Shown here: in pieces, positions 3,396 through 33,500 of the stretch | Numbering within the stretch: the first letter of the stretch is position 1 | Layout: every line of letters begins with the position of its first letter | Source: Marsupella aquatica | Taxonomy: Eukaryota; Plantae; Marchantiophyta | Length of the DNA stretch: 64,000 nt | Direction: 5' to 3' | Assembly (NCBI GenBank): GCA_973895155.1 | Contig: OZ316899.1 | Location: 7,071,241-7,135,240, forward strand | Translations under genes and position numbers: made by a program | The notes under the pieces: generated by a model | What the model was told of the DNA's origin: nothing | What the model saw: only the letters and a program-made list of their open reading frames with translations | Database searches by the model: none

Positions 3396-3522
3396 TTTAG
3401 TTTTCAAAATGTTCTTCCAACTCTCGTAAGAATCAGGAAACGAGAGAGGCCATCCCAACAGAAAATGCAGATCAGCAGATAAGCAGATCCTGAAGAAAGC
3501 CCAAAACAGATTCTCGAAGCAC

Positions 3523-7959: not shown

Positions 7960-10155
7960 AGCAAGTGCAAGTTTGCGATGAACAAGATTAAGTTCCTCGG
8001 CCATACCTTTACCCCGAAGGGATTACGCCTAGTCAGGACAAACTTAAGGAGATCAAAGAATGGGAGCGCCCGTCCAATGTAAGGCAGGTTAGAGCCTTCT
8101 TAGGGTTTATGGGGTTCTATTGGAGATACATGAAAGACTATGCGAGGATCGCGAGGCCCCTAAACGAGCTAACGTTGAAAAACAAAGTGTTTGTGTGGAC
8201 ACAAGATTGTGAGTTAACATTCCTGGAACTTAAGCGGCTAATGATAACGCCGCTAGTTCTAAAGTTACCTGAGATGGGGAAGCCATTCGAGATTTGGATA
8301 GGCACAAGTGATTACACCATTGGCGCCTGTCTTCACCAAGATGGGCGTCCTGTGGCCTTTGAGTCATGTAAGTTGGAAAATCATTGGATCACACCGGAAA
8401 GGGAAATGTATGTTGTGATCTATGCGTTGAAGAAGTGGGAGATTTACCTTAAGAACGGTCCCAAAGTGGTAATTCACACAGATAGCTCGCCGGCAGGGTA
8501 TTTCAGTTCTAAGCCAAGACTGAACCCCAAGGAAATGCGCTGGCAGATGTTCTTGGCGGATTTTGATTTCAAAGTCCGCCATGTTCCAGGGAAGACAAAT
8601 ATGGCAGCGGACGCATTATTGCGTAAGGACCAACATTGTGTCAATGGGATCACGATGCTCGAATCCGAGTGGCCAAAGGTTCTGGCCGCGGCTTATGGGG
8701 ATGATAGGTTAGCTAAGGAATGGCAAAGCAATGGGGGTAGGCAAGGTAAGGCACGTATCGTTGGGGTTGGATACGACGCATAATGTTCAGTTATGGCGAT
8801 ACAGGCAGAGGCGTGTGGACGTACCAGAGTCTCTAAGGTTAGAGGTTATGCAAAAGTACCACAACTCGCCCTAGGGAGGGCATGGAGGACAAGCCGCTAC
8901 GTATCACAGCATGTCACGAGATGTGTATTGGCCGGACATGAAGCAATCGGTCCTTCAACACGTGCAAAGTTGTTACTCGTGCCAAAAGAACCAAACGGTC
9001 TATAGGGCAAAAGGAGGACTGCTACAACCCTTACCAGTAGCTGCGGCTCCATGGGAGTCTATCTCCATGGACTTCATTGTTGGGTTACCTGAGTCCCATG
9101 GCAGTAACTCCATATTAAAAATCGTGGATCATTTTTCCAAGATGGGGTATTTCTTGCCTACTACGAAGATGGTTTCGGCCCGAGAGGTTGCCGGTCTAGT
9201 GTTTGACAATGTCTTCCGACAATGGGGATTGCCATTGCATATCTTGTCCGATAGCGATACCAAGTTCACGGGCCATTTCTGGAAGGCATTATTCTGGTTA
9301 TTCAGAACGGACCTGACTAGGGGATCAGCATATCATCATGAGACAGATGGCCAAACAGAACGGGTTAATGTTATCGTGGAGGATTACTTGCGTCACTTTG
9401 TGACGGCCAATCAAAAGGATTGGGCAAAGCATTTAACAATGGCCGAGTTTAGGTATAACTCGACCAAGCATTCGCCGACGGGGTTTGCGCCGTTTGTGTT
9501 GGCCACAAGGAGGACGCCAAGGGCGCCCTCCTGGTTTATAGATCCGGAAGCTTGGCGGACAAAAAGCAAGGTTCCTTCTGCGGACAATTTTATTCAAGAG
9601 CGGCGCCTAGTTGTGGAAGCGGCCACCAAGGGTATGACCCTTGCCCAAAGTCGGTATAAGGAGCAAGGGGATAAACATCGATGCCAAGTAAGCTTTGAAA
9701 TTAGGGAGAGCGTCTGGTTGTAGTTGAGACTTGAGAAATACCACGGGAACATAAGTAGGAAGCTGGCTCCCAGATATGCAGGGCCCTATCGCATTATACG
9801 ATGGGCCCACAAGGATAATCCGGTTTTGGTGGTGTTGGAGACACCCAAGGAAATGGGCGTGGGCAAAAGCTACCATGTTAGCTGGCTCAAGAAATTTATC
9901 AAAGACAATGATCCCAACCGGGATCAAGTCTTGCGTCCGGACACGATGCTAGTAGAGGACGGTGAGGAGTTTGAGGTGGAGGCAATTCTGGACCACCGTT
10001 ACAAACACAAATTGGGAAGGCAAATCTTGGAATATTTGGTGAAGTGGGCTGGCTATGACCAGGCCGAGAGTACTTGGGAACCGGAAGAAAATTTGGGTAA
10101 TGCCTCAGAGATCCTTGGAAGCTATTGTAAGCAAAGCGGCCTACCGCCGTTGTGA
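7960..10155 (+). pseudogene. pol: pol 3' part, copy 1 (RH 8109..8783, INT 8911..9723, chromodomain in 9724..10155)
   Basis: Same motifs as 45233..47428. Confidence 0.93.
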
Positions 10156-10579: not shown

Positions 10580-10588
10580 AAAGGGGGG
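10580..10588 (+). promoter_or_regulatory. Polypurine tract (copy 2 at 47853..47861)
   Basis: AAAGGGGGG immediately before the TG that starts the 3' LTR. Confidence 0.8.
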
Positions 10589-11942
10589 TGCAAGTCGCGG
10601 AACTCGACTACCTTAACACTTAGCTCCGGCATCGCTGACTCCGACGCCGAGCTCCCTTATGGTCCAGGCCCGGATAGGCCAGCCGGGGAGGACTTAGCAT
10701 GGGGAGGCTTGTGGGCAATGAGACGTGGCACTAGCGAGGCAAGGAGCCAAGCTGGGGACACACACTAAGGATTTGGACTAGCTGATAGCTGGTCGGGTCA
10801 AGGAGAAATGTGCCGAGCTCAAGGATGGCCATCCGAACCTCCGGATGGACTTTGAGTTTTGAGGGCTTGGGTGTGAGCTCCTCTTGGGCCCAAGGCCAAT
10901 GGAGTTGACGCCATGGGCAACGGACGCTTGGGGCGCAAGATATGGCTCGATCCGGGTTGGGCCGGTCGGGGGCCCTGAGTGGCGATGAGACCTGAGGGCC
11001 TAGGCATGAGCACTGGGTTGGCCCGATCACAACAGGCTAAGGCACTCCACTTGCGGATGCCTAACGAGAAAGTTATGGGCGTTGCCAGTTGGTGGCGCGC
11101 CCATTATGCGCGATAGGATCCGGGTTGGGGGCCAAATGTTTAGGGACCAAAGCTGGTCCGGGGGTGGCAGGTCTCCATAAGCATATATGAGGGGAGTGGT
11201 GTCTCCCTGGGGCTATGGGCAAGCCGAAGTCGTGAGCCACGGTGATCGCGACACTAAGAGAAACCGTCAAACGGAAATGGCGATATCTTCCCAATGGGAA
11301 GTCCGTTGGAGGACTTCTTGGGTGTGTTGGAAAGATCTTCAGGAGGGCTATGCCCTCCTGAGATCAGCTGGGTCTGGGGGTACCTTGGGGTCTTGGGGTT
11401 TGCGGGTGTTAACTCGCCTACTTGCCAAATCCTGCCGAACAGCAGCCAAGCCACGTTCAGTCTCCCAAGGGAACTTGCGTTGGGGAGGAAAGGCCAAGTA
11501 GGTGTGGAGGTTGAGGCCCAAGAGCGTTTGGCCCCTAGACCATCAGTGAGGTGAACCGGGAGTGGATTCTAGCGTCGGGGCCATTCTGGTCCCGGTGTGT
11601 TGGGACAAGCTTGGGACAAGCTTGGGACAAGCTTTAGGACAAGCTACGCTATTTGGGCCATGAGCATGTCCTGAGGTCAGGGCGGTTAGTTGGTGATGGA
11701 TAGGTACAAGGGGGAACCCGGCCGCGCCCAAGGAAGGAGTTGTTCTGAAAGAACAATGGGCGTGGGTTCTGGTTCCGGCTTATGGCATCGGGAGGACCTA
11801 TTGCTGACCTATTTACCAACGTCTATTGAGCTTGAGTTAGGATGCTAGACTTGGTGAGGTGGTGGTGTCAACACATCAGGCGTTCGGGCACCAAGGCGTG
11901 AGTGTTGGGATTGGTGAGGGCGCTGGGTGGCAAGGTCCACCA
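10589..11942 (+). repeat. 3' LTR of element A
   Basis: Starts TGCAAGTCGC after the PPT (same start as 25302) and ends GGTCCACCA as the 5' LTRs do; about 150 bp shorter near 11860. Confidence 0.88.
11600..11644 (+). repeat. 11-bp TTGGGACAAGC tandem repeat inside the LTR
   Basis: Three perfect units plus one variant here; two plus one near 33003; one plus one near 26301. Confidence 0.85.
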
Positions 11943-12129
11943 CTGATATGAGGGCCTAGGCATGAGCAGTGGGTCGGCCTAAGAACAATGGGCAAAGGCA
12001 CTTCACTTGCAAACGCCTAACTAGGAAGTTATGGGCGTTGCTAGTTGGTGGCGCCCAGATATGCGGGATATGGTCCAGGTTGAGGACCAAAAGTTTGGGG
12101 ACCAAAGGTGGCCCGGGGGTGGCAGGTCT
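11943..12129 (+). repeat. Relic of an older LTR of the same chromovirus family, left piece (copy 2: 49216..49402)
   Basis: Diverged match to LTR positions ~10990-11175; continues collinearly at 25224-25301. Confidence 0.8.
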
Positions 12130-12361
12130 TGTGGTGCGTCCCATGGCTCTCAAAACCCAAGAACCCGCCCTGAACAAGCCAATTCCCACCGGTTTTGCTC
12201 TTGCCAAGGCCATTTCCACGGCTTATCGGCATGGGACGCGGCTAAAACTCCTTTACTAACTTTTTACCCACATGTATTGGACAGATCCTTCATCGGGTCA
12301 TGAGATATGCAGTTGGTCTAATCTAGGCCTCTCCTTCCTCTCTTCCCTTGGTCTCCCCTTG

Positions 12362-12388
12362 GGTATGTTTGGATTCCGCCGCCGGAAT
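12362..12388 (-). promoter_or_regulatory. Conserved hairpin motif (A/G)TTCCGGCGGCGGAA(T/C)-N-AAAC(C)ATACC, putative U5 cis element (also 16253, 27795 and, on +, 31189)
   Basis: Present 170-250 bp from one terminus in X-outer, X-inner, Y and Z. The closing pair of the 6-bp stem is A-T in X and Z and G-C in Y. Confidence 0.6.
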
Positions 12389-13247
12389 GATGCCCAATCG
12401 ACTTGGGTAGCCGCTAAGATTCCTCTAAGCTCAACACATCAGGCTCTGCCTGCTCCTGATGACTTCATTTCCTTCTTTTCTCTCCTATAGTTGATGTGGG
12501 CAATCTTTGCACAAGTTGATGTGACACACAACTAGAAAGATGACTCATACTAAGTTATACCGTGCAACTGTCATACAAAGAGTACTTCTCATACACAAGA
12601 TCTGCAAACTAAGCCAGAAGGCCAACTCTATTAAGCTCTTAGGCATGAGAAAACATGAATACACACAAGAGTCACTACATAACTAACCAAGAGCTTCTCT
12701 GACTAATTGATCCCAGCCTTGTTGGTGCACTAAAAACTTGCTTAAGAAGAAGGCCCCAAAGTCCCCGTTGCACAGGTATTTATCCTGGCAGTGCACCTAC
12801 CTATTTCCTTGCCGCGTAAGCTAAATCTACCTCTAAGTGGAATCTACCTATGTATAGTGGGGCAAGAGCACAAGTGGTGCCCTTACCAGTGGATCCGCAA
12901 TCCCACTAATCTAAATGTTAGGGCCGCTTCTTGGCCCTAATCCTAATCCTAAATTTGGAGGTCAGCGCCCACTTTGCCCACTCACGTCTCCTACCTCCAC
13001 GTCCGCCCTCCCTAACAGGGATGACGCTCCTCCACCGTCATGACGCTGGTGGCTGGCCCTCAATGGACGCCCCCAATCCTTCCTCGACAGCCAATGTAGG
13101 CCTCTTGTTCTCTGACAGGTTACCCGCTCTTGACTGGGTCAACTTATCCTCGGCGTGATCGGGCCCCACTCCTATCTTGGCTTCTGCTTCTCCGGCTTCT
13201 ACTCCCCAAATTGTAACAGTGGTGAGTTTGCCCCTGCAGCTTCAACA

Positions 13248-13304
13248 GCAGTGGTCCTCCTCATAGGCAGTGGTCCTCCTCTTAGGCAGTGGTCCTCCTC
13301 ATAG
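13248..13304 (+). repeat. 3 x 19-bp tandem repeat GCAGTGGTCCTCCTC(A/T)TAG (copy 2: 50521..50577)
   Basis: Read directly from the sequence. Confidence 0.88.
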
Positions 13305-16300
13305 GCTCATCCGACGAGTCGGGTTGTCTCATCCTCCCAAGGTTGCGGGTGATGCCAATCAATGATTGGCAACCTTGAGTCAGTGCCCGCCATGGCCTCA
13401 CCCAGCTGGTCTTCTTAGTCTACCTCTAAGACTGCCACTTTGACAGCCACTACCTCGCATAAGGCTGGTGCCATGCTTCTACCGAGGAGCCACGGTGGCC
13501 TAAGGAACCGTGTTGCTCCCTTACCCCAAAGGTTTTTGCTTCTTCTTGTCCTTCCCTTCCATGGTAGTCGGTGCCTTCCCCTTGCCACTTACTTTTGGCA
13601 AGGGTGAGGGTACCTTGGCTTGTCTCTTGGTCAGGACCACGCCCTACAACCTTGTTGCCACCATCGGGGGTCCACTTGTTGCTGCCTATCGATTTAATTA
13701 ACTCCTCAGACAGTTTCTTCAGCCGCTTTGTTTGGTTGTCCGCTCGCCTCTGCAAGTTCTCTAATTTCTGTGTGGCATCCTCCAACTCCTCATGGGTCTC
13801 GTCTAAATCCCCGCGAGCTTCCTCCAACTCCTTTAGGTTGTTGTCCAACTCCTTCCGTAAGGCCGCCCTCTCCTCCTGGGTTGCTCTTAGCTCTGCGTTG
13901 AGCTCATGCACGACTTCAAACTCTATCTTATTCATCTTCTCGTAGGTTTGGTTGAGCATGTCATCCTTCTTATGCATGTTGGCTTGAAAGTTGGCCGACA
14001 GGGTTTTGCAGTCCTCCTTCAACTTATCGACGCTTTTGTAGGCCTCATCCAAGTCGTCCTTTTTATTATGGAAGGCCCTATGGAATTCTTTGATCTCCTC
14101 CTTCAGTGCCGCTCCTTCCTCAGCACCTTGGTCATGGCTTTGTTGACGACCGTTAGGTGAGCAGCCTCTGCATCTTTAAGCTCTTGCTTCCACTTCTCCT
14201 TCTCCTTGAGAGCCTCGGCCAAATGCCCTTGGGTCTAGGCAACTTTATTCTTGATTAACTGGTTATCAGCCTTGGCCGTATCCAGTTGCCCCTGCATGAT
14301 GTTTATCTCATGCATCCTAACCCGCAGCTTGTCTTGAGCCTGTTTGGCTGCTTTTGGATCTCCAGTCTTGGCTTCCTTCTCTCTAAGCCGCCAGATGACC
14401 TCCTCTTTCTTCATCCTCTCCAAGGCTAGTGCCTCCTCCCACCGGCTCTTCTCCAACCTCTCCCTATGGAGGAAGGGCCCCATCTCTAACTCCTTGCCAA
14501 AGATGTTGAGGGCAAGTAACCCGCACATCCTCTCGTACTCCAGGGCTCTAGAACGTGCATAGATGGAGTGGTTAGGAGATGCCAACATCTCCCAACGCAG
14601 CCTTTGTTCCCAAGTCATCCTCCAAATCTTGTCAAACGTGGGCAAGGGCCCGACTTGGTCCTCTACAAGCCGCCAAATGTCCTTTGGCCATCCTTCGCCT
14701 GGCAAATCCTTCTCCTTGGCCAAGGTTGCCCTCTCCAGATCTTGGAGTTGCTCTTGCAACTCTTGGTCAGCCTGTTTTCTCCCATCGTAATTTGGAGGAG
14801 GGACGTCTGGTGGGGGAGACTCCGGGCTTCTCTGCTGTTTTGGGTCCCCACGCACCACTCTTGGAAGTGTGGGAATGAAACGGCCATAGGTCCGCACCCC
14901 TGGTACCAAATGATCTGACCCGTAGCTAAAGCGTCCTTGTTATATTCCTCCATGCCCTCCCTTCCGGCCTAGAGTACTGGTGCTTGCGGATCCTCTCTTG
15001 GGCTAGCCGCAAAAGCGGCATCCTGTTGGGAACTGTGCATGTGTGCGGTTCTCTCCTCTGGCTCCCACACCTGCCTTCCTCTCTCCTCATCATGACTACA
15101 AACCCTGGGCCCTTGTCCCTCGGGTTCTGGTCTTGAGGCTCCCACGCACATCCGCACCCCTGGCTCGTCTGCTGGCATCCTTCTCTTTGCGCCCTCGGCA
15201 AACGGATCTGCTGTGGTGGGTCTTCCGGTTCCTCCCTCCTCAACCATGCCCTATACCGGTGCCCTTATTGTCATTGCCATCTTCTCCTTCTGGAACATCT
15301 GCAGCAGGCTCTACATGGTCGGTTGCTGCATTGGCATGGATTCCGGCATTGGACTAAAGATCTGTGATATTGTGGAGCTGCCGGGCGGTTTGGGCTTCCT
15401 TGTTGCCGGCCTTGGCTCTAGCTCCTCCTTTGGTGCCCTTGCCTGCAGGGGGAGTATGGGCGCAAAGATCTGTCTCCGGGCATACCGGCACAACAACGGC
15501 ATGTGATAACCAAGCCAAGCCACACTCCCCTGACCTGCCACTTGTTGTTCTTCCTTCAAGATCTTCTTTAGTTGGGCAAGGAGGTATCCATTGTAGTCCC
15601 AGCTTGGGGCTAGGTAAACCTGTGCCTTGCCGATCTCCAGTCTTGGCAGGTTACAATGCATTGTCACTCGCAAGAAATCATTCATTTCTCCAATGTGCGG
15701 GTTGGTGCAGGTGCTTTGGAAGAAGCCATTCTTTGTTGATGGCTTGGGGAATGATCTAAACTCCCTGTCCAACAAGTTCTTTTGGGTGTCTACCTTGGCC
15801 TTGTTGCCCATTGGCAAGCCAAACACTTTGGCAATCACCTTGGGGGTGAGATAGAAGTCCCTCCCATAGATCTTGGTTGAGTTGGACTCGTGGTCCCATG
15901 ATCCCACGAATTCCAACAAGTCTGATTTTGGCACCTCCGGTTTCAGCCACGACAATCTAACAATGGCCTCCAAGCCCAACCCGGCCATGAAGCCTTGGTA
16001 TTTGTGGTACGTCCCATGGCTCCCTAAACCCAAGAAACCCCTTTGCACAAGCCGATTCCCGCAAGTTTCGCTCTTGGCGAGGCCGATTTTGCGGCTTAGC
16101 GGCATGGGACGCTGCTAACTTCCTTCTACTACTATTTAACATTTAACTCACATATACTGGACAGATCCTTCATCGGGTCATGAGATACATAGCCGGCCTA
16201 TTCTAGGCCTTCCCTTGTCCTCCTCTCTCGATTTCCCTTTAGGTATGTTTGGATTCCGCCGCCGGAATGATCCCCAACTGGCTTGGGTAAGCCGCTAAGA

Positions 16301-17950
16301 CCTCTCTCAGCTCGACACATCCAACTCTTACTACCTTGCTTACTCCCTTCTTGGTTGATGTGGGCAATCTTCAAACAAGTTAATGCGACACACAAATAGC
16401 AAAATGACTCCTTCTGACTGAGTTATATCATGCACTTGCCATACAAACAGTACTTCTCATATACAAGATCTGCGAACTAAGCCGTGAGGCCAACTCTATT
16501 CATCTCTTAGGTATGAGGAAACATGAATATACACAAGGGTCATAGTATAACTAACCGAGAGCTTCTTTAACTACTTGATCCCAGCCCTGCTGGTGCACTA
16601 AAAACTTGCTAAGGAAGAAGGCCCGCAACTCCCCGCTGCCCAGGTACTTATCCTGGTAGTGGATCCGCCTAATTCCTTGTAGCATAAGCCTAATCTACCT
16701 ATGTACAGCGAGGCAGGAGCACAAGTGTTGCTCTTACCAGTGGATCCGCAATCCCACTAAGCTAAGTGTCAGGGCCGCCTCTTGGTCCTGATCCTAATTC
16801 TAAACTTGGAGATCTGGGCCCGCCCTGCCCACTCACGCCTCCCTCCACGTCCGCCCTCCTTAAAAGGAGCGGCCCTCCACCACCGTCATGGCAACGGTGT
16901 CTGGTCCTCAATGGACGCCCCCAACACTTCCTCCGCAACCACTACCGTAGGTACGTCCTCTGACAGATTACCTGCTCCGGACCGAGTTAACTCTCCATCG
17001 GCCTAACTGGGTCCACCCTCGGCTTCGGCCTCAGCATCGGCCACGGCCTCCCCGACATGTTCTAGTGGTGGATCCGGTACCCTGGCTTCATCACCGAGTA
17101 TCCTGGCCTTGGCTTTGCCATCCCCGCCTTCTAGGGCAGTTGGATCCTCTGTCGTGACCCTGCCTGAGGTTGGTGTTGGGTTTACCTCCTTGGTCACAAC
17201 GGCTTGAGGAGCCGTATTACTCCCTGACCCAGAAGGTTTCTGCTTCTTCTTCTTCTTTGGTTCGGCAGCTGGCCCCTTCCCCTTGCCACTTACCTTCGGC
17301 ACCGGTGCGAGTGTCTCGGCTTGTCCTTTGGCCAGTACTACTCCTGGTAACTTGGTTGCCCCAATTGGAGTTGGACCTGAGGAAGCCAAGCACTTAAATA
17401 TTGCGACCTGTTTCTTTAGCCGCTCCATTTGGTTGTCGGCTCGCCGCTGTAAGTTTTCCATCTTCCGCGTGCTTTTCTCCAACTCCTCCTGCAATTCATC
17501 CAGGTCCTTGCACGCCTCCTCCCGCTCCTTCTGGGCTTCCTCCAATTCCTCCTTTAAGGTAGCCCTCTCCTCCTGGGTTGCTCTCAGCTCCTTGTTGAGC
17601 TCCGTAACGACCTCAGACCCCATTTTATTCATCTTGGCATAAGTCTAGTAGAGTTGGTCGTCTTTCTCACGGAGGTCGGCCTTGAAGCTGGCCATCATGG
17701 ATGCGAGCTCCTGCCGTAGCACGATAATCGCCTGATAGGATTTCCCTAACTCGGCCTCCTTCTGCTCAAGGGCTCCGCGGATATCCTCGAGTTCCCCCTT
17801 TAGCGCCCTTTCCCTTCTCTGAGTTTCCGCCATGGCCCGATTGTTGGCTGCTATGTGGGCCTCCTTTGCGTCTCTCAGCTCTCGCTTCCACTTCTCCTTT
17901 TCCTTGATCGAATCGGCCAGCTCACCTTGGGTCCGAGTAAGTTTATCCTT

Positions 17951-20900
17951 TTTTTTCTTTTTTCTTTTTTTGGATTTTTACATTTATTCCGCGTGAAACC
18001 CATGGATGGGGGAACCAGCAGGCCAAACGGCATCATAAAACCTCAAACGCCCAAAGGAGGCAATAACAAAGAGTTACTCAACCAGGGTCACCAGATCAGG
18101 CAAAGATTATGAAGCCGTTCTACTAGTGTTCCATGCAGCAAGTAATAGCTAGGGGATAAGCACTAAAAGGCGCAGTAGGTCAGCAGAGTAAAAGTGTAAA
18201 GTGTCAAACCATTGTCTAGTACTGAATTAATCCACCTAATTAGTAAGAAGAGGGTGTATACTGTAGCGGGAGAAGGAAAAAAACCAACGGCATGAACTGT
18301 AAGGGCCACCAAGAGTGGTGCAGCCATAAGCTATAGGGATTGAAAACAGTGCGGGAGGTAGTGGCATTGTGTATGAGGAAATCACGGGAGTAACGGTGTC
18401 AAAAGAGAAGACAAAACTCCCAGATAGCCACATAGTATAAATCAATCTCTCACAAGGCCGCCATCAATGGAGGAAAAAATCCGACGCGACCCACGTCTGA
18501 GAGTGTGAATGCGCTCGATCTCCAACAGTTCTTTGGCACTCGATAGACACCGGTGCTTGCGGCTCAAAGATGAAGGAGAAAGCATGGAAGCAGCCGCAGC
18601 GACATCAATTAGGTGGTCCAGGGTCTCCAAAATAATCAGCATCTGATCAAAAATCCTATGTCTAGTCCGGTCAAAAGTCTGAGCATTCCTAGCCAACCAA
18701 ATGTTCCACAAAATCTGATAGGTAGTGTAGATCCGAAGGGAGTGAATAGGTAATTTTCCCACAGCAGACTTGATAAGGCCAATCAGGGATGGCGTTCCAT
18801 TGCAGAGTGCACCATGCATCCACCCGTGAGCATCAGTCCAACACCTACTGGCGTGCCTGCATGAGAAGAAAATATGTGAGATAGACTCAAGGAGTCCCAC
18901 ACAAAGCACACAACAACCATCAGATTTTCCAATTCTTAGAGCCCTAGAGCCAGAAAACAGACCCTGTGCAAGAATACGCCATAGAAAGACTTTCGCTCGG
19001 GTAGAAAGATCAGATGTCCACACAGCCCTCCACACTTCATTCCATTCTCCATCTATGAGGGCCTCCGCCCAGATCCGGTTCAGACGAGCAGAATCAGTGC
19101 CTTTTGGGCGCAAAAACTCATAGGCTCGAACATTTGTTAATCCAAAGCGATTAGTTCCAACCGCCTGGTCCAGGCAAAGCCATTGTCGTGCAAGAGGCAA
19201 GGTTCCAATGCCGCCAAAGGGAGTTCCACGAATTACTCCCGTCAAAGAGAGACATAGAACCCTGCAAGGAGATGTAAGGCCTCTCAACCGTTGTAGTCGT
19301 GATTCAACATTCATCCATGTGCCATCAGTAGCAGACCAGAAATCCCCGATTTTCCTTATGCCAAGTTTACCAAACGTTCTGGTTAACTCCATAATCACAG
19401 AATCAGGTAGCTCATAGAATCCCTATAAGCAGCGGATAGCATCTTCAAATCCCCAATGGCCAGGGATAGGGTCATAAGTATTAGGGTAGAAGATCAAGTG
19501 TTCTCTCAACTGTTCCCAGGCACTCCACAATTGGCTAGTATATGACAATCTCCCAAAGCTATGAGGGGTGCTAAGAAGCATCTTGTCAGTCAAGGAGTAC
19601 ACATTCCTGCGGACAATCTTGTAATTTTGCCATTTCGTCAATCGAAGATTTTCAGAGAGCATGCAAGCCCATTCAGAGTCGGGGCAATCCAAAGCCCCGG
19701 TGAACCATTTACTCAAAAGTGCGTCCAAGTGACTTTTGAGATCCTTCAATCCGAGACCACCATCCAGCTTGGGCCGAGTCATCTTGTCCCAAGCCACAAG
19801 AGGGATTCGTTTCCCCCCCAACGGGTTGGAGCCCCACAGAAAAATCCTGTTTAAAGCAATCAACTTTTTAGTCAAGGTAATAGGTGAAAGTAGAAACATC
19901 ATGTGATAAACCGGTATGGCCTGAAGCACGTGCTTGATTAACAACAGGCGGCCTGTGAAAGAAAGGAAGCGAGTAGACCAGGATGCAAGTCATGCACTGA
20001 TCCGATCCAAGCAGAAGCAATGCAGTTGCTTCTCAGAAAGATTAGAACCAAAAGGGGCACCTATGTATTTTTGCACAGTGCCTGCAGCGCTAATTGTACA
20101 CCCCGTTTCGTGTAGCCAGTCAGGGATCTCATCAATAGCCAAAGGTATAATGATAGATTTGCCCAGGTGGAGTTTAGCTCCAGTTGCACAATCATTCGTA
20201 GCAAGTGATAGTGTTTCTAGCCTGTGTAAAAGCAATCTTCGTGGCAGGAATGAAAAGGCCTAGATCATCGGCAAAAAGTCTAAAGCAAATAGTTAAAGAG
20301 GAAGAGATTTGTAGTCCTTGGAGTCGACCAGCTGCAATTTCCGCATGGCAAAAGTCCATCAATGGCTGGGTGGAGATAGCAAACAGAAGAGGAGAAAGGG
20401 GACAGCCTTGGCAAACTCCCCTGCACATCTTAATATCATCAGTCCAAAGTCCGTTGACCAGAACTTTAGAAAAGGAATTACTTAGCAGAGATCGAACTAA
20501 GAATATGTAATGTGAGCTCAGGCCCAAAAGATTCATAGTTTCCCAGATATAGAGATGATCGACCCTGTCAAAAGCTTTCTCAAAGTCAAGCTGCAAAAAG
20601 AGAGACGGAGTCTGCGTGGATTCAATCCAGTCGTGTGTCAACCACGTTAGTGAGATATTTTCCAGTATATGACGTCCAGGAATGAAGCCTGTTTGCTGCG
20701 GACTAATCATACGGGGCAGCAGCACCTTCAATCGCAGGGCAAGTAGCTTCGCCAAAATCTTGTATGTGGTTGTTAGCATAGTTAGCGGCCTCCAGTCGCA
20801 CAAACGACGCTTGTCAGTCTTCTTGGGGATAAAACGGATCACGCCATCTTTGATCCCATAGGAAATGTGGCCAGTTCTCCAAAAGTCGTAGATCATATCA

Positions 20901-21641
20901 TATAGGTCAACTTTCACAAAATCCCAGCAAGGACGTAGAACTTTAGCAGTCATACCATCTATCCCTGGTGCTTTATCATTAGGTAGCAATAGTAGGGTAT
21001 CATGTACCTCCTTAATAGTGGGTAAAGCTTCCAATTGGTGGTTCTCAGCGGCAGAGGGGCAAAAATGAGTGTGCTCACAGAGTTTTTGTCTAGCAGCACG
21101 CATCGCCAAAAGCTCCTCAACATTGAGTTCCTGCGGAGAATACAGCGCCTCACAGAAATTTTGAACCTCCTTGATGATCAGATTTTTGTCATGAATCTCT
21201 GAACCATCATCTCCAATTAGGTACTCCATAGTCTCTCTCAGACGTTTTGCTTTGACCAAAGAGAAGTAGAACTTGGAAGGTTCTTCACCCTGGCCAAGCC
21301 AGTTGATCCGGGACAGCTGCCGGTAGTGATGTGCATTCTCAAGTTCCATTTTGCGAACACTGTTATCAGTATAGGCAAATTCCTGCAGATCATTTGGAGC
21401 ATGCTCGTCCATGATAGAGATTTTGAGGAGGCAAAGTTTGTTCCTGAGGATTGCCAGCTCCTCCTCCCGGGGTACCGGCAAAGATTGCAGCTCCATAAAG
21501 CACTTCCAAAATCTTTGGAATGCGTTGGCAAAGCGTAAATGAGGATCCGCAGAGGGCACATCATCACCCCGCCAGGCAGCCTCTAAAAGATTCAGGTTCT
21601 CTGCCTTCCGAAGAACAGAGGGCTTTAAATAAGTAGCTCTC
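17951..21641 (-). mobile_element. 5'-truncated L1-clade LINE (LINE-b), related to but distinct from LINE-a
   Basis: T-rich tail at 17949-17971; 8-bp TSD TTATCCTT at 17943-17950 and 21642-21649; starts just downstream of the endonuclease domain. Confidence 0.9.
18442..21641 (-). pseudogene. LINE-b ORF2 remnant (RT plus zf-RVT-type C-terminus)
   Basis: KAPGIDG, WRPLTML, LDFEKAFD, QGCPLSP, LFADD, CVLC...HIFFSC; frameshift near 20192 and stops at 19990 and 19423. Confidence 0.9.
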
Positions 21642-24600
21642 TTATCCTTGATAATCTGATTATCAGACTGTGCGGTATCCAATTGCCCTTGCATGATGTT
21701 GAGCTCATGCCGCTTATTCCGCAGCTCATCTTGGGCTTTCTTGGCCGCCTTAAGGTCTTCTACCTTGGCTTCCCTTGCCCTAAGCCGACGGATGACCTCG
21801 TCCTTCTTGCTTCTCTCCAAAGCCACCGCTTCTTCTAATCGACGCTTCTCCAACATTTCCCTCTGGAAAAAAGGTCCCTGCTCCAACTCCTCTCCAAAGA
21901 TGCCAAGCGCAAGTTCCCCACACATCTCCCCGTACTCCATGGCTTGTTCTTTAGCATAGGCGGAGTGAGTAGAAGTCATCGACATCATCCACCGCGGCCT
22001 TTGTTCCCAAGCCGCCTTGCCAATTTCTTCTATCGTGGCTGGTGGGCTGCTTTGTTTTTCTGCAAGCCGCCTGATGTCCTTTGGTCATTCTCCTCCTGGT
22101 AAATCCTTCTCCCTAGCCAGGGCTGCCTCTTCTTCCTCCCTGAGTCGTTCCTGAAACTCCTATGCCGTCTGTTTTATGCCGTCAAAGCTCGGGGGAGCGA
22201 CATCTGGTGGGGGAGACTCGGGGCTGCTCTGCTGGGTCGGGTCCCCTCGAACTACTCTTGGAAGAGTGGGGATGAACCTGCCACAGGTCCTTATTCCTGG
22301 AACATGATGGTCCGACCCGTAGCCGGAGTCATCATTGTCGTAGCCTTCTACCGTCTCCTCCTCGGCTTGGACTACCGGTTCCCACCGCTGCTGTCCTGGT
22401 CTTGCCGTGAACACGGCCTCACAGATCACGGGTCCTAGTTCCTCCGGCTTCCACGTTGATCTCATCTTCTCCCTGTCGCGACTAGGAGCTTTGAGCTGCT
22501 TTTCCTCGGCTTCGGGACTTGAAGCTCCTACATACATTCGGACTCCCGGCTCGTGTTCCGGCCTCCTTCTCTCCTTGACCCCTGTAAAGGGGTTTTCCCT
22601 GGTAAGTTGGCTAAGGCCGACTTTGGGAGTAGTATTCTGTACCGGTCCCGTTGCCGTTGCCGTTCTCCTTTCCTTCTCCAGCAATTTCAGCAGAGTCTGC
22701 AAGCCTGGTTGCTGCATCAGCAAGTCCTCCTTCCTCGGCCTAAACACCTGCTCAATTGTAGGATTGTCGGACTGGGTCGGTTTCTCTGTTGTCGGCCTCG
22801 GTTCCGGAACCTCCTCTGGTGCTCTTGCCTGCAGAGGCAGTACCGGGGCGAATATCTGACTTCGGGCATACCGGCACAACAGCGGCATATGATAACCAAG
22901 CCGGGACACGCTTCCCATGTCGATCACCAGCTGTTCCTCCTTCAAGATCTTCTTTAGTTGGGTGAGGAGGTACCCGTTGTAGTCTCGGCTTGGGTCTGGC
23001 CTCTCCGCCAGATAGACCTGTGCCTTGCCGATCTCTGCCCTCGGCAAGTTACAATGCATGGTTACCCGCAAGAAATCGATCATTTCTCCTATGTGCGGGT
23101 TGGTGTAGGTGTTTTGGAAGAAGCCATTCTTTGTTGATGGCCCTGGAAACGCCCGGAACTCCCTGTCTAGCAAGGTCTTCCTGGTATCTACTTTGGTCTT
23201 ATTGCCCATCGGCAAGCCAAACACTTCGGCAATCACCCGGGGAGTGAGATAGAAATCCTTCCCATACACCCTTGTGGAATTGGTCTCGGGCTCCCATGAT
23301 CCCACGAATTCTAGTAAGTCTGAATCCGGCACCTCCGGCTTTAGCCATGGTAGCTTTACGAAGGCTTCCAAGCCGGATCCGGCCATGAAACCTTGGTATT
23401 TCCGAGTCTGCATAGCCGTAAAGCATGCATCCTCCTCCCGTGCAAAGTGTAATTGCACCTCCTTGAGGAGGGTCGCCGCCTAGCCTTTCCAGGTGTCATC
23501 TCTTGTTGGAACGGCATTGACGGGGTCGACCTCTTCCTCTTCGGCTTCCGCCTGCCTCCTACTTCCCTGCTCTGCTGGTTTTTTGGGTGCCACCGACCTC
23601 GTTCTTTTTGCAGGGGTGGCTTCTTCGTTGTTGTTCCCTTTCCTCTTCATAGCGACTGCCGTGGATGTTTCTCCTAGCACGGTTGCCTTCATCCACCCCT
23701 CCGTGCTACCCTTCAACTCCCAGTGTATGTCGTTGCAGCGGTTGATGGCCTCCCGGATGCTGACTATTCTATTCTCACAAAATAGAAGATTGTCAAGTTC
23801 GTCGGCACTAGGCGTCCACAAGAATTCAGCCGTAATGAGTTCTCCTCCTAAGAAAGCAGACTTCTGCAGCTCCCACAACCGAGCGAGCTCCTGCCGTTCT
23901 CGAGCCGCTCTCTCCGATTCTTTGTCCTCGTAGGTCCCAATGTACTCAGTTGCCCGTTCTAACAGGCATCCCCAAGAATGAGCAGCTTGATTGACGTTGC
24001 TCATACCCTTCTTGAGTTGATTGTCGGTATCTGCTTCCACCCCGAGTTGATTGTCGGTATCTACGCACCCTAACCCTAATTGTGTTCCCTCCCCTGACGT
24101 CCTTACTTTTGGCCTCGGCTCGGGTTCCATAGTCACCCTTAATTGTTTATATTTCCCTATTTTTGTTACTATACTAAGGTGTTTCCTAGGGTACACTCCT
24201 GATTTTACTATTTAAACTGGCCTAATGATTCCTGGCTAGGCATCACAGTATTTTTGGTCTGCATGGCTATAAAACATGCATCTTCATCCCATGCAAAATA
24301 TAACTGCACTGCCAGTGGTAGGACCGCCGCCCACCCCTTCCATGTATCAGCTCTATTGGGGATGGCATTGACTAGGTTGACCTCTTGTTCTGCGGCTTCC
24401 TCCTACCTTTGTCTCCCTTGCTTGGCTGGCTTTCTTGATGCTTCCGACCTCGTTCTTTTGGTCGGTGTGATTTTTTTGTTGTTGGCCATCTTCCTTTTCC
24501 TTTCGGCCGCTCCTGACAACTCGGCCAGGATTGTTGCTTTTGTCCACGCCTCCGTGCAACCCTTCAGGTCCCAGATTGTTGTTGCAGTTGTTGATGGCCT

Positions 24601-25223
24601 ACTGAATGCCAATGATTCTATTCTCTCAAAATAGAAGATTGTCAAGCTCATCGGCAATAGGCGTCCACAAGAATTCAGCCTTGATGATCTCTCCTCCTAG
24701 GAAGGCAAACTTTTGCAATTCCCACAGCCAAGCAAGCTCCTATCATTCTCAAGCTGCTCTTTCCGACTCTTCCTCCTCATAGGTCCCAATGTACCCACTT
24801 GCCATTTGAATAGGCATCCCCAAAAATGTGCAACTTGATTGACATTGCTCATTCCCTCCTTATGTTGTTGCTGGGTGTCTACTTCCGCCTGCCGTGTTCA
24901 CCTTTGCAACTGACAGTCGTTGGCTTCTCCTTGCAATTTGTTTGATCAATGTGCGTGAATGAGCCGTCACTCTTGGTGAACCTCCCTTACCCCCCTCCGG
25001 CCTGCCCCTGCCTGACTTGGTCGCTGATTACCTGCAACCACCAATACTTAGCGTACCCAAACCCTAATCATGCCCCTTAGTGGTCCTTGCACCTATTACT
25101 CCCGGCCTTGGCTCGGGTTTCATGGATATCCTTAATTGTTTACATTTTCTTGTAAGGGTTTTTGTGTATACCACCCAACTTTACTATTTTACAAGCCCTA
25201 GTGATTCCTGGCTAGGCATCACA

Positions 25224-25301
25224 GGTCTCCAGGAGCATATATGAGGGGAGTGGTGTCTCCATGGGGGCTAAGGACGAGCCAAAGTTGTGAGTTGCGGTGG
25301 T
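25224..25301 (+). repeat. Relic LTR, right piece (copy 2: 62497..62574)
   Basis: GGTCTCCAGGAGCATATATGAGGGGAGTGG matches the LTR at ~11171-11245 and resumes where the left piece stopped. Confidence 0.8.
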
Positions 25302-26772
25302 TGCAAGTCGCAGAACTCGACTACCTGAACACTAAGCTCCGGCGTCACTGACTCCGATGCCAAGCTCCCTTATGGTCCAGGCCCGGATAGGCCAGCCGGG
25401 GAGGACTTAGCATGGGGAGACTTGTGGGCAACGAGACGTGGCGCTAGCGAAGGCAAGGAGCCAAGTTGGTGACACACACTAAGGACTTGGACTAGCTGAG
25501 AGCTGGTCGGGTCAAGGGGAAATGGGCCGGGCTCAAGGACGACCATCCAAATCTCCGGATGGACTTTGCGTTTTGAGGGCTTGAGTGTGAGCTCCTCTTG
25601 GGCCCAAGGCCAATGGAGTTGACGCCATGGGCAACAAACGTGTGGGGCGCAAGTTATGGCCCAATTCGGGTTGGGCCGATCGGGGGTCCCGAACGGCGAT
25701 GAGACCTGAGGACCTAGGCATGAGCATTGGGTCGGTCCGATCACAGCGAGCTAAGGCACTCCGCTTGCGGTGGCCTAATGAGAAAGTTATGGGCTTGCCA
25801 GTTGGTGGCGCGCCCATTATGCGCAATAGGATTCGGGTTGGGGGGCAAAATGTTTAGGGACCAAAGCTGGTCCCGGGGGTGGGAGGTCTACAGAAGCATA
25901 TATGAGGGGAGTGGTGTCTCCCTGGGGGCTAAGGGCGAGCCGAAGTCGTGAGCCGCGGTGATCGCGACACTAAGGGAAACCGCCAAACGAAAATGGCGAT
26001 ATCTTCCTAACGGGAAGTCTGTTGGAGGACTTCTTGGATGCATTGGAAAGCTCTTGCCAAGGGCTACGCCCTCCTGAACTTACCATGGGTTCTTGGGGTT
26101 TTCGGGTGTTAACTCGCTCACTTGCCAAATCCTGCCGAACAACAGCCAAGCCGCGTTCAGTCTCCCAAGGGAGCTTGCATTGGGGAGGCAAGGCCAAGTA
26201 GGTGTGGAAGTTGAGTTCCAAGAGTGTCCAGCCCCTAGACCATCAATGAGGCAAATTGGGAGTTGGTTGCTAAAGTCAGGGCCATTCTGGTCCCGACGTG
26301 TTGGGACAAGCTTTAGGACAAGCTACGTTATTTGGGCCATGAGCATGTCCTGGGGTCAGGGCGGTCAGTTGGTGATGGATAGGTACGAGGGGGAACCTAG
26401 GCCACGCCCAAGGATGGAGTTGTTCTGGACAAACATTGGGCGTGGGTTCTGGTTCCGGCTTATGGCACCGGGAGGACCTATTGCCGACCTATTTACCAAT
26501 GTCTGTTGAGCTTGAGTTAGGATGCTAGACTTGGCGAGTTCTAGATCCTGAAGGGTTACTTACCGAGGTGCTTGGTTGCTTGTGCAGACAATGAAGACCG
26601 TTGAGTAGCGGTCGTGTTGGAGAGCAAGTGCGGCTTCGTATGGGAGGGGCCGTTGGCGGTGCAAGGGGCATTAGGGTGCTTGCTCAAGGTATTCCATGGA
26701 GGCATTTGGGCACTAGGGGCATTAGGCGTGAGTGCTAGGATTGGTGAGGGCGCTGGGTGGCTAGGTCCACCA
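25302..26772 (+). repeat. Complete 5' LTR (~1.47 kb) of chromovirus element B
   Basis: TGCAAGTCGC...GGTCCACCA, homologous to the element A LTRs and followed by a PBS. Confidence 0.88.
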
Positions 26773-26776
26773 CTTG

Positions 26777-26788
26777 TGGTATCAGAGC
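26777..26788 (+). promoter_or_regulatory. PBS (initiator tRNA-Met) of element B
   Basis: TGGTATCAGAGC 4 nt after the LTR end. Confidence 0.92.
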
Positions 26789-26919
26789 GATTATCGGCAT
26801 AGACATCGGGCCGAGGTTGTGTTAGGTCGGAAGCCAAAAATCTTAACGGATTTTTGCAGGGACTTAGTGCTTCAACGTGCCCAGCGGGTTGACTACGGGC
26901 AGATTCGGTCACTCGGAGC

Positions 26920-27625: not shown

Positions 27626-29082
27626 TGTCACGTCGTCGGCTTTGGCCTTAACTCGGGCTTCAGCTTAGACGGGCACATCCTTTGTAAATATGAGGGTTCG
27701 GGCAGGGAGGGAAGCACGTAATGCACCTAATTCGTGTAAACTAGCGCTAAGTGCGCCTACTGTTAGATACGGACACCTCCTAGGTATGGTTTGTGTTCCG
27801 CCGCCGGAACATACCTTAGTCGATAGCAGGATTGACCCCGGCTTAAGGGCTTCTAAGCCTTCGTGTTGTCCGCCTTTGATCCGGATTTTATGATACAGGT
27901 CCTCAACCCGTGCTCGCAACCACTTACCCGCAAGCTGCACCCCGTGCACGATTTGGGTAGTGCGTTCGGCCCGACATTGCCACCTATACACGAGATTCAC
28001 CCATACATATACACGCACAAGCATACAATCTCGATTTACACGAAGGAAATGGTGGGAAAGGATTTTACTACATAGGGGACATATGCGTACACTTGATTGA
28101 CCCAACAGCTCTGGAGTGAACAGGTCCAAGACCGAGGGTGTACACTACAACGGAGCCTGGCTCCGCACTCGCCCAGCGAGCTTAGTCCTACCCCCCTCCC
28201 CTTGGTACTCTTCCACTCCCAGAGGTCGGGACTCCTCGCACATACCGCGGATGTCCAATTTGAGACTAAAAACCCCCCTGCCTCTACCGAGGGGTGCACT
28301 AAATACTAAGGGCCGAGGAACAGAGTGTCCTCCCGCCCGAAGATTCGCTGACTTAGGTCCTAACTAATCTGACTGTCAGGCCAAAAAACGGCTGTGTCTT
28401 ATTAGAAGATCCTAAACTATGCAGGCTGGACAGCATGGCGGTGCTGTTTTAACTAGGGCAGGTTCCTGCCCCCATAGCCTGATTTAGCTATTCCTAACCC
28501 TATTCTATTCCTACTCCGCCGCTAATGCCTGGCATGCGTGCTAGAGCCGCTCGAGTGGGAGCGGCCATCCCGTTGCTTACGAAGTTTGTCGTTGTCCGCC
28601 TTGAGGAGCTGGACCTGGTCCAGTAGAGATTCGTTCTCTCGCTTCACCGCATCCGTCTCCTCCGCTGCCTCCTGGCATGCCTCCTCCAGTTGCTGGGCGT
28701 CGCTCGTCAGCTTGCCTGCCAGCTGGTCCTGCTTCTCGGCTTCGGTTTGGAGCCGTGCCACTTTGACCTGTAGCGTGGCTATCTTTGTAGTGTCCCGCTG
28801 GGCCCGTTCTTGGCCTCCTCCAGGTCTTTCTGCCAGATGACAATTTGATTATTCAAACTGTCAATCTGGTTCCGGAGTTGTGCAATCTCGGCCTCGTTCC
28901 CAGCTTTGGCCTGATCGGCTAGGGCGGTAAGGGCCTGCGCCTTTGCTAACAACTCATCGGCGGCTGCAACTTTGGGTCGTAGTTGCAGAAGCTCAGCCTC
29001 TTGAGCCGCAACTTTGTTCTTTAAGTATACGGACTCCACCCGGTACCGCTCTATCCTCTGAAGGGCCTCTGACTGGGCCCTA

Positions 29083-31433
29083 TGTGACGCCAATGACGTG
29101 GTCCTTATTTTGTAATCTGATTAAGTAGGTTGCTGTATGCAAGGAGTAGCTATTGATATTGCATAACAATTAGCAAGATGGCAAGAATAAGGGCAATCAT
29201 GGCGTTAAGAGTAGGGAAATAAAAGCTATGTCGCGGGTGGTCGACGACCATATCTCTTTCAATATGTCACCAAATCCGGATCTGTAAAGAGCATTGGAAA
29301 GATCTGGTCAAGGCGAGTAAAATCGATATAAAACACTCGAGAAACGGAGGTGTATTAAGAAAGATACGGCCTGATTAGTGTGACGGGTTAACTTGTGGCC
29401 GGAATTAACGGATTCGGCTTCAGTTTCGGGTTAACCACGGCTTAGCTTATGTGAGCACGGCTTCAGCTTAGCTCAGGTCAGCACGGCTTCAGCTTAGCTT
29501 AGGTAAGCACGGCTTCAGCTTAGCTCAGGTAAGAACGGCTTCAGCTTAGCTCAGGTCAGCACGGCTTCAGCTTAGCTCAGGTCAACACGGCTTCAGCTTA
29601 GCTCAGGTCAGCGCGGCCTCAGGTTAGCATAGGTAAGCTCGGATTCGGGCTCAGCTTAGGCTAGGTTAGCGGATAGCGGGTAGCGGCCTAACCCGAGACC
29701 ACGGGTTAGCTCTACTCGGGTTAGATAGGATAGCTAGGTTAGCCAAATTCGGGTTAGCTATGTAACTCGGGTTAGCGCAGCAATGAGTACCCCCTCTCGA
29801 TTGCGGGGGCATAACTCTCTGTGTATTTGACCAAATCGGCTATAATTGACCTCGTTGGAAAGAGGAGCTCAAGCCGCTTCCAACGCTGCTATCCACGCAG
29901 AAAATGGTTAAATAGAGAAATCGGGAGAGGAGGCGCAAGCTCGCAAAAACTATGGAGGAGGGCCGAATCCGAAGTACATAGCCAATTCGAGATAGAAATA
30001 AAGTTGCGAGTTAGGGTTCAGTAGTTAGAGATAGTGGCGGCTCTGTTAGGGCTGGGATGGGGCTCCAGCAGCGTAGTATCCACCCATTTGGGCTCAGTAT
30101 GAGAGTATATAGGGCAGCCCCCGGTAGAGGCAAGGGGGGGGGGGACTTCAGTTGTGTGATCTCACTTAGACTGAGCAGCGGGGAGGAGCTCTGTGCAAGC
30201 AAGGCTGGACTTGGACGCTGCGTGTTGGGGAGAGCTTGGTTGTGCTATTACTCAGGGAGTAATCAGCCAAGCTTCACAGCAACGGGTTGCTAGGTTTGCG
30301 AGCTAGATTGTGGCTCTTTCTAGTGGGCAGCACAACTGGGTTCTTTTCCCCCGATACAGAGCCTTGGTGATAGGTGATGTATTGGTGATTGTAAACTGTG
30401 GGGAGGATTTCAATTCGATTTGCGGTGGGCACATTAGGGAGGCTGAGGTCCTGATTAAGGGGCAGCAGGAGGAGCATTTACAGTTCAGTCTGGCAAGGCT
30501 ACGTGATCCATGGGGAGTCCCTGCCTTTGTCTGGTGGAGAGCACTAAGGGATCTATGGCCAGAGCTGAGCTTGCAGGGCAAGCATGAGGCCGGGCCTCAT
30601 TGCAGTCTGGGGTAGATCGCCGTTAGGCCTGGTACCAGCCTTGAAGTCGAGTCAACTATGCATGCGTAACTTGACGTTCTGAATTGGAGGTGTGAGATCT
30701 GTATGTGCCCCCAAGAATGAAGTGCAGTGAAGGAGGTTGAGTTCAGGATTGAGTTTGCAAGGCAAGTACGGGATTGGTTCGAGTCCAATCTGCCGTCGCA
30801 ATCTGGAGTGAGCCGGGCTCAGGTTCAGGATTGAGCTTGCATGGCAAGCACGGGGCTTGCAGGGCAAGCACGTCACAATCTGGAGGAGACAGCCTTCGGC
30901 CCTAGTATTCGGATCAAGTGTTCTCAGTGAACTATTGTGCACATCTTTGAATCTAATTGAGTTTTCCTCTCAGGCCTCATTTCTCTCATGGATGTGTGTG
31001 TGTGTGAGGAAATATGAGTGTATGATGGAACTAGCAGCGCCACTGAGAGGTGTACCGGGTGCATTGAAGCGGGCTGGGTGAGGACTGTCATAGCTCTGAT
31101 TGTTGAGAGTGGAATGGCAGAGTGGTGGGGCAATGGCTTAGAAGTCCCTAAGCCGGGAATCAGTCAGGAGTCACTGGTTTATGGGTACATTCCGGCGGCG
31201 GAATAGAAACATACCTATGATAGTAAGCATATGTATAGACCTATTGCGCACCGTAGTGCTAGGCCCTGTGTGTACGGGCCCGATATGAAGACCCCTTCTC
31301 ACCAGAACTATCATGAGCGCAGATCTGATCCCCAACCTTGGTTCCTTGGGATTGAGCTTGGGTGATGTGTGATAGAGTCTTGCTATGATAGTCTGGTGTT
31401 AAGGGCATAAACTGGTGTTTATCGGCATTCACA
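29083..31433 (+). mobile_element. Element Z: ~2.35-kb non-coding solo-LTR-like insertion
   Basis: TGTGACGCCAAT...ATCGGCATTCACA imperfect inverted ends, internal tandem array, TATATA at 30106-30111 and the shared hairpin motif at 31189. The TSD is ambiguous (CCCT at 29078-29081 and 31438-31441). Confidence 0.68.
29454..29635 (+). repeat. 7 x 26-bp tandem array (AGCACGGCTTCAGCTTAGCTCAGGTC)
   Basis: Units start at 29454, 29480, 29506, 29532, 29558, 29584 and 29610, with degenerate flanks. Confidence 0.92.
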
Positions 31434-33484: not shown

Positions 33485-33488
33485 CTTG

Positions 33489-33500
33489 TGGTATCAGAGC
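33489..33500 (+). promoter_or_regulatory. Primer-binding site (initiator tRNA-Met)
   Basis: TGGTATCAGAGC directly after the LTR; canonical plant iMet PBS. Confidence 0.93.

Follow-up and report, generated by a model that had tools for sequence, protein, structure and literature searches.

Extra genes of LTR retrotransposons and the Marsupella aquatica locus

The long terminal repeats (LTRs) of plant retrotransposons are treated as non-coding, and extra open reading frames (ORFs) are sought in the internal region of the element. Coding sequence within a terminal repeat is familiar from retroviruses: the MMTV sag gene lies in U3, the HIV nef gene overlaps the LTR, and HTLV-1 HBZ is expressed in antisense from the 3′ LTR. 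An antisense promoter has been described for HTLV (PMC7264820). Here we analyze a 64,000-bp stretch of the genome of the liverwort Marsupella aquatica (GCA_973895155.1, contig OZ316899.1, positions 7,071,241 to 7,135,240 of the forward strand; hereafter the window, numbered from its first base), in which two related insertions lie one inside the other, an outer element at 12130-25223 and an inner element at 16003-24247, each filled mostly by a single gene of about 1,180 codons. We consider it probable that both are solo LTRs that carry this large accessory gene in antisense, downstream of the LTR promoter, and we hold the solo LTR origin itself, whichever way the gene points, to be likely with greater confidence.

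The closest described genes are the extra ORFs of the Athila and Tat lineages (Ogre, Retand, and TatIII), which encode ATHILA ORF-1 (PF03078), PMD (PF10536), or Transposase_28 (PF04195) domains, often with a coiled coil (PMC6317226, PMC4408406, PMC7264820, PMC11963269). The REXdb database lists ATHILA and PMD among the extra-ORF domains of Athila and Ogre elements, together with SMC-like hits (TIGR02168) (PMC6317226). In Tat elements, a PMD and a coiled coil are encoded in antisense (PMC4408406), and other 3′ antisense ORFs have been described in the internal region (PMC7264820, PMC11963269). The gene described here resembles these in being a long non-catalytic ORF with a look-alike core and an SMC-like coiled coil, probably in antisense, in a unit with a 5-bp target site duplication (TSD) and what would be a very long LTR. 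It differs in position, in that the Athila/Tat extra ORFs have been described in the LTR-to-gag or the pol-to-3′ LTR interval, whereas this gene lies between the integrase-type ends of one repeat-free unit, and it differs in having no Pfam membership. In PMC4408406, moss Tat-like elements had no extra ORF and the first such ORFs were found in gymnosperms; in contrast, the sole named relative of the present protein is from a liverwort.

The two insertions are like the solo LTRs of Ogre-type elements with long LTRs in their TG..CA and short inverted ends, 5-bp TSD, lack of an internal primer binding site (PBS) or polypurine tract (PPT), and size (PMC6431247), but three quarters of their length is one selected frame. 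Like sag, nef, and HBZ, the gene would be coding sequence within a terminal repeat, or in antisense to the element, no sequence relation being claimed; unlike them, it is much longer (1,181 codons), would lie wholly inside the repeat and probably downstream of the promoter, and would belong to a plant retrotransposon. A search of the literature on ORFs within LTRs and on liverwort elements, which included few subscription papers, returned no ORF inside the LTR of a plant retrotransposon, and a prior description may exist. The available parts of PMC12885004 and PMC7466625 contain nothing on ORFs within LTRs, and REXdb does not keep LTR-located ORFs separate.

If the antisense solo LTR reading is true, the LTR of one lineage houses a gene of 1,180 codons, and the recombination that deletes gag and pol, the host's main route of removal, spares the accessory gene together with its likely promoter, so that a high-copy family scatters many stand-alone gene units. 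ATHILA/PMD-like accessory proteins would then occur in a non-seed plant, earlier than in PMC4408406, and the question of extra-ORF function would gain a testable pair, the protein and a DNA motif that is conserved.

Two nested insertions and the gene they carry

Without the nested inner copy, the outer element measures 4,844 bp, and its target is an LTR of a chromoviral Ty3/gypsy element. The inner element, which measures 4,546 bp once a long interspersed nuclear element (LINE) is excised, interrupts the outer element's gene where it encodes the core domain. Both have TG..CA ends and perfect 5-bp TSDs, GGTCT for the outer copy (12125-12129 and 25224-25228) and GTATT for the inner copy (15998-16002 and 24248-24252). 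Both start with TGTGGT(A/G)CGTCCCATGGCTC and finish with GATTCCTGGCTAGGCATCACA, with near-identical terminal 20-mers, and the inverted ends match at 7 and 8 of their first 10 bases, perfectly over 4 bases only. The empty outer site is preserved as a single GGTCT in other copies of the host LTR, at 11165 and 32568. In addition, three of four public sequencing runs (from two studies, one possibly the window's own source) held contigs with the joint 12122-25222 across the outer copy, and three of four held contigs with the joint 16000-24251 across the inner copy. The nested copies and their TSDs had been described in an initial sequence-only reading of the window, and this description is borne out and now extended by empty sites: the outer and inner copies are true insertions with integrase-type ends. 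All four runs also contained a contig across the inner site with a different joint (16003-24264) and 11 other letters between, which probably represents an outer-element sister subfamily that lacks the inner insertion.

The equipment of an autonomous retrotransposon was absent from both copies, as first proposed. A sensitive end-to-end comparison revealed no terminal direct repeat and no short true LTRs at both ends (the best inner match was 28 bp at 82%, E 0.035, and the best outer match 11 bp). None of 15 PBS-type motifs occurred inside either copy, and purine tracts, inspected as possible PPTs, were present on the gene's coding strand only, or as one tract in the outer arm. The six ORF pieces of both copies had no Pfam match to gag, reverse transcriptase (RT), integrase, or transposase. 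The layout of TRIM, LARD, or internally deleted LTR elements, with direct repeats at both ends, a PBS, and a PPT, was likewise not found. The two insertions share with solo LTRs TG..CA with short inverted ends (as does a third unit, element B, described below), a TSD and an empty site, and the lack of a PBS, PPT, gag, or pol inside. An origin by deletion from an ordinary element, one with an internal extra ORF and shorter LTRs, would agree with the internal position in which such extra ORFs are normally placed (PMC7264820, PMC11963269). Such derivatives would, however, retain a PBS or PPT and a duplicated part of the LTR, both of which are absent here, and we regard this origin as very improbable. 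The ATG lies 100 to 117 bp from the end in two of the families, and the layout is no chance deletion because three distant families with proteins up to 24% identical share one anatomy (the third, element A, is described below).

The LINE within the inner gene (17951-21641, minus strand) is 5′-truncated, has its poly(A) tail at the left and matches to RVT_1 and zf-RVT, and is flanked by an 8-bp TSD, TTATCCTT (17943-17950 and 21642-21649). Sequencing depth of the inner family was very high in four of four runs; in run X2, it was approximately 20,000 to 58,000 inside the element against 81 to 411 inside the LINE, counted in bins lying wholly within each. This indicates a high-copy family, the summed depth itself not being a copy number. 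Summed contig depth was alike for the arm and the core domain, a measure that is likewise not copy number and was not used as a test. Metagenome contigs, scanned for the end pattern and for the protein P0028 introduced below, and viral contigs yielded no related locus, one viral scan giving a single match without a locus.

The inner frame runs on the minus strand from an ATG at 24130 to a TGA at 16886 and, with the LINE excised, comprises 3,546 nt, or 1,181 codons plus the stop. It starts 117 bp from the right end and ends 883 bp from the left end, and the figures initially given for the inner copy (4,546, 3,546, and 117 bp, and about 0.9 kb) were exact. The LINE splits the gene into its first 829 codons (21642-24130, minus strand; three internal stops), which encode the N-terminal helical part, the core, a low-complexity linker, and the start of the coiled coil, and its last 354 codons plus stop (16886-17950, minus strand; two internal stops), which encode an SMC-like coiled coil, a KKKKK patch, and an acidic tail. 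The five internal stops compare with about 52 expected by composition (P ~1e-16). The outer frame contains more stops than the inner one and several frame changes. Its 5′ remnant (24253-25123, minus strand) begins 100 bp from the right end with an ATG (25123) that is the homologue of the inner one, and its 3′ remnant (13038-16002, minus strand) carries stops and frame changes and ends with a stop that aligns with the inner one. No stop is common to the inner and outer frames. A 19-bp tandem repeat (3.1 copies, 13248-13306) in the outer gene tail is absent from the inner copy.

Comparison of the inner and outer copies gave a ratio of nonsynonymous to synonymous divergence (dN/dS) of 0.10 (193 codons, bootstrap 0.06-0.16) in the core domain (residues 243-440; 22811-23404, minus strand), which is conserved, stop-free, and of an unannotated family. 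The ratio was 0.25 in the coiled part (390 codons, bootstrap 0.155-0.355). The linker and the tail gave 0.33 and 0.36, respectively, and residues 54-134 gave 0.22 (76 codons). Of the synonymous sites, 53 to 67% differed in six in-frame segments and 43% in residues 54-134. Because dN/dS is 0.10 in the core, the 1,181-codon frame is a real gene despite its stops and the LINE. The ORF is a gene under purifying selection that is broken in these copies; the selection would have acted in active elements. The original statement of one gene of about 1,180 codons stands as a selected frame, although the five stops, the further stops and frame changes of the outer frame, and the duplication of the whole region (described below) had gone unstated.

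The encoded protein starts with a helical N-terminal part. A core (about 200 residues), a linker of low complexity, and a long coiled coil with a KKKKK patch come next, followed by an acidic tail. No env-like transmembrane segment was predicted (peak 19-residue hydropathy, 0.94 and 0.97). Membership in the ATHILA ORF-1, PMD, Transposase_32, or DUF1985 profiles of Pfam was not found: the core had no match, nor did any of 18 members, even at E 10. NCBIfam gave SMC-type coiled-coil matches only, all sub-threshold. A HMMER scan returned 17 proteins, 15 of them plausible relatives; P0009 and P0013 were dropped as chance matches, based on Ig/cadherin repeats and helicase-associated repeats. Among 10 of the returned proteins that were looked up, the sole named one was a protein of the liverwort Calypogeia fissa (CAM6122807.1), and the remainder comprised one bacterial chance cluster and others that are unnamed or “hypothetical.” P0028 is a stop-free relative of 787 residues with the same core and coiled coil.

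In the ESM Atlas, the inner core matched unnamed Streptophyta clusters best (0.90-0.91), followed by DUF1985 and a PMD-bearing cluster (0.89), on 14% of which PMD is present; the P0028 core matched Transposase_32 (0.84) and ATHILA (0.83). With family scores below 0.9, under the tool's own bar, these ties to ATHILA, Transposase_32, PMD, and DUF1985 are weak look-alike leads. Shared-word protein searches found nothing for residues 40-440 of P0001 (7,990 candidates) or for the core (113 candidates), and alignment A2 found nothing among longer proteins (1,179-3,365 amino acids; 7,181 candidates). A PDB sequence search with P0001 had no match, and the five weak PDB matches of A3 (best E 0.046, histone H2A) were taken as chance. 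Predicted folds were of low confidence (pLDDT 50.6 and 48.7), each with one beta-hairpin among helices. Foldseek with the first model found no match at E 0.001, and the best VIA-align hit of a low-confidence model (Z 5.1) lay on a helical hairpin and was uninformative.

These data bear on whether the units are cut-and-paste DNA transposons with TG..CA ends, the ORF being a diverged transposase or a non-catalytic helper. Such a transposon would account for a single long ORF that takes up most of the element, MULE DNA transposons are also known to encode PMD proteins (PMC5418596), and one Atlas lead is to a family named Transposase_32. Against this, the inverted ends are perfect over 4 bases only (7 to 8 of 10 overall), whereas DDE/Ginger-type DNA transposons have terminal inverted repeats of tens of bases, which neither copy has. 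Pfam and NCBIfam contain no integrase or transposase family matching the ORF, the conserved columns are mostly hydrophobic or NG and include no conserved D-D-E columns, and both low-confidence models consist of one beta-hairpin among helices. By sequence, the ORF is not a recognizable transposase; an ORF proving to be a transposase had been named as an outcome that would count against the original proposal. We judge a DNA transposon to be quite improbable.

For the protein itself, we tentatively suggest a non-catalytic role in the nucleus, as a coiled-coil regulator that binds chromatin or DNA and is of the type encoded by ATHILA/PMD extra ORFs. It might help the element to escape silencing. 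This guess is drawn by analogy from the Arabidopsis PMD proteins MAIN, MAIL1, and MAIL2, which act at DNA motifs and oppose Polycomb silencing (bioRxiv 10.1101/2024.09.27.615353; PMC5418596), and the PMD tie here is the Atlas lead of 0.89 only. PMD-A clades are encoded by gypsy elements (PMC5418596; bioRxiv 10.1101/2024.09.27.615353).

Shared motifs and the polarity of the gene

The remainder of each copy is a non-coding arm (inner, 16003-16885, plus strand; outer counterpart, 12130-13037). The two arms are conserved, with 82.6% identity (719 of 870 aligned bases) against the much larger synonymous differences given above for the gene, and the arm is likely the U3 or promoter part. Two motifs in the arm recur in two further elements of the window, A and B. 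Motif 1 (inner, 16241-16267, plus strand; AGGTATG..TTCCGCCGCCGGAA) forms a short palindrome or hairpin and is found again in the outer copy (approximately 12362-12389, with one change), in A (27782-27809), and in B (31190-31216, minus strand), in all four at 155 to 310 bp from one end; 100 shuffles gave no match. The base of its stem carries one paired change in A. By the same analogy as above, motif 1 is possibly a site at which the protein acts. On the plus strand, motif 1 opens with the splice-donor-like AG|GTATGT (16241-16247 and equivalents), upstream of the putative TATA box described next.

Motif 2 (inner, 16592-16604, plus strand; GGTGCACTAAAAA) lies about 600 bp inside the arm, is oriented toward the 3′ end of the gene, and has counterparts in the outer copy (12724) and in A (28293). 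In alignment, CCCTATATA of B corresponds to CACTAAATA of A and to CACTAAAAA of the inner and outer copies, and a search found five matches against 0.03 expected. The B and A motifs match with E 3e-6 each, motif 2 over 35 bases. Motifs 1 and 2 follow each other in the same order in the inner and outer copies, A, and B. We infer that motif 2 is a putative TATA box with a promoter role.

Element A (27626-32377) sits in the gag of the host element and has a TGTCACG end, a 0.93-kb arm, and a minus-strand gene encoding a coiled coil and a core. Its right part is lost at 32377, the host LTR resuming at 32378. The A core is 24% identical to the inner core over 90 residues (tblastn, E 7e-6 within the window), A and P0028 are 33% identical (pairwise, E 3e-14), and one piece of the gene, at 31525-32376, is stop-free over 284 codons. 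A represents a third, distant ORF-bearing family with the same anatomy as the inner and outer copies.

Element B (29083-31523, minus strand) is inserted in the gene of A, measures 2,441 bp, and has TG..CA ends and a TSD with one mismatch (CCCTA/CCCGA) but no long ORF; in place of the gene of the other elements, it has 1.0 kb of non-coding DNA. Element B presents, in its reading direction, the TATA-like CCCTATATA, CT-rich and AACCCTAA-like runs, a 26-bp tandem array (8 copies, 29440-29646), and a T-rich end, as would be expected in a plant LTR. Near 29855 it also holds a palindromic motif, GTTGGAAAG..CTTCCAAC, which probably also occurs in other plant gypsy LTRs. TATATA-type boxes and T- or GT-rich downstream stretches belong to the described layout of plant LTRs (PMC3601003). 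B probably is an ordinary solo LTR that belongs in one group with the inner and outer copies and A, and its reading direction corresponds to their plus strand. That a third ORF-bearing element and an ORF-less one share collinear motifs with both copies is new here.

The TATA-like box is oriented so as to read into the 3′ end of the gene, and the gene is therefore likely antisense and on the R/U5 side rather than in U3, a polarity read from the motifs. In the sequence of events that we favor, a full element of the order LTR-PBS-gag-pol-PPT-LTR would have been inserted by its own integrase, and recombination between its two 4.5- to 4.8-kb LTRs would then have left one LTR. In this scheme, the 0.9-kb arm would serve as U3 and hold the TATA box near +600, and the gene would lie in R/U5 and be transcribed the opposite way. 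Its transcription would have to start from a separate promoter in the last 117 bp, where a TATA-like TTTAAATAG is found about 80 nt upstream of the ATG. The gene would be present twice in a full element.

Published figures agree with an LTR. A 5-bp TSD is recorded for 93.4% of the plant LTR retrotransposons in REXdb, and the LTRs of non-chromovirus elements reach about 5 kb (PMC6317226), with 1.9 to 6.5 kb in Ogre elements (PMC6431247); the size of 4.5 to 4.8 kb falls within the known range. The integrase end motifs tabulated for the Metaviridae include TGTGGYG and CNTNACA (PMC3601003), and the ends of the inner and outer copies agree with motifs of this type. Solo LTRs reportedly form more readily when the LTRs are longer (Du et al. 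2012, as cited in PMC7251063).

The initial proposal had been a solo LTR with the gene in U3. Its first half remains the best reading, with an ORF-less sister, B, that shares the motifs, whereas the placement in U3 is disfavored by the TATA-like box about 600 bp inside the arm. A sense gene in U3, like MMTV sag, would put the promoter, R, and U5 in the 0.9-kb arm on the minus strand; it would draw on the same ends, TSDs, and evidence of selection and would avoid an R/U5 of 3.6 kb. This polarity is unlikely in our view. In B, the clear TATA-like CCCTATATA, the runs that are CT-rich or AACCCTAA-like, and the far end, which is rich in T, read along the plus strand of the inner and outer copies. 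The aligned box in the arm faces the 3′ end of the gene, and T makes up 43% and 41% of the 100 plus-strand bases at the ORF-side ends.

Several observations weigh against an antisense gene in a solo LTR. Within the window, there was no full-length element and no PBS- or PPT-flanked copy, and all three complete TG..CA units (inner, outer, and B) are single, which an LTR-less unit predicts as well. With an R/U5 of 3.6 kb, either the first cDNA strand or R itself has to be very long, and the opposite polarity would be favored by the published rule of stronger conservation in R/U5. The TATA link of the inner and outer copies is a 15-base match (blastn E 0.33 alone), and their box, CACTAAAAA, is not a canonical TATA. 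The ends also agree, at seven of eight positions, with a motif of the opposite orientation, Mag C TGTNATRT (PMC3601003). As for the protein, the Atlas scores are leads only, Pfam is empty even at E 10, and both folds are poor.

The single state of all three complete units, their lack of an internal PBS or PPT and of terminal repeats, and the great depth of the inner family in four of four runs would equally fit an LTR-less protein-coding unit that has integrase attachment ends only and depends for its movement on a retrotransposon or Ginger-like integrase acting in trans. This carries about the same low probability as a sense gene in U3, as does a distinct LTR-shaped, single-copy mobile unit with integrase attachment ends and one large non-catalytic regulator gene, mobilized by the integrase of another element, selected in at least three deep families and never forming paired repeats. 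In an LTR-less unit, an inward antisense promoter would have no obvious use; the ORF-less B shows ordinary LTR features, and many solo LTRs are expected from long LTRs in any case. We know of no route by which an LTR-less unit is copied via RNA without paired repeats. In reverse transcription, a single-copy unit cannot restore from RNA the part upstream of its promoter, and we favor an LTR because a unit whose inward promoter lies 600 bp from its end needs a second copy to be restored from its own RNA.

Host element and other repeats of the window

The window is a nest of plant transposons. A Pfam search located RNase H, integrase, and a chromodomain of the host chromovirus at 7992-10152 and a capsid-like domain, zinc knuckle, protease, and RT at 34215-36671. 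Rfam had no match at E 0.5 over 12000-32500, and a tRNA search found no tRNA gene. A 37,273-bp unit is repeated in the window: positions 1-26727 and 37274-64000 differ by 4 mismatches in 26,727 bp (99.985% identity), and this tandem duplication is either an assembly repeat or a segmental array that arose very recently. Because of it, the copy of both insertions at 49403-62496 is not an independent insertion, and all features were counted once.

The PBS of the host chromovirus, at 26777 and 33489, is presumably of the tRNA-Met type, judged by its motif. Its LTR lacks a terminal CA before the PBS, both 5′ LTRs reading CCACCACTTG and then TGGTATCAGAGC (10583-10600, 11930-11950, 26765-26790, and 33477-33500), and TGCAAGTC stands at the start after the purine tract. 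The termini of this LTR are possibly AGT..ACT or CAAGT..ACTTG.

An L1-type LINE (567-7641 and 36748-44914, minus strand) sits in the host pol and carries an ORF with DUF4283 and a zinc knuckle, an endonuclease, an RT, and zf-RVT. It is about 64% identical over 1.36 kb to the LINE inside the inner copy.

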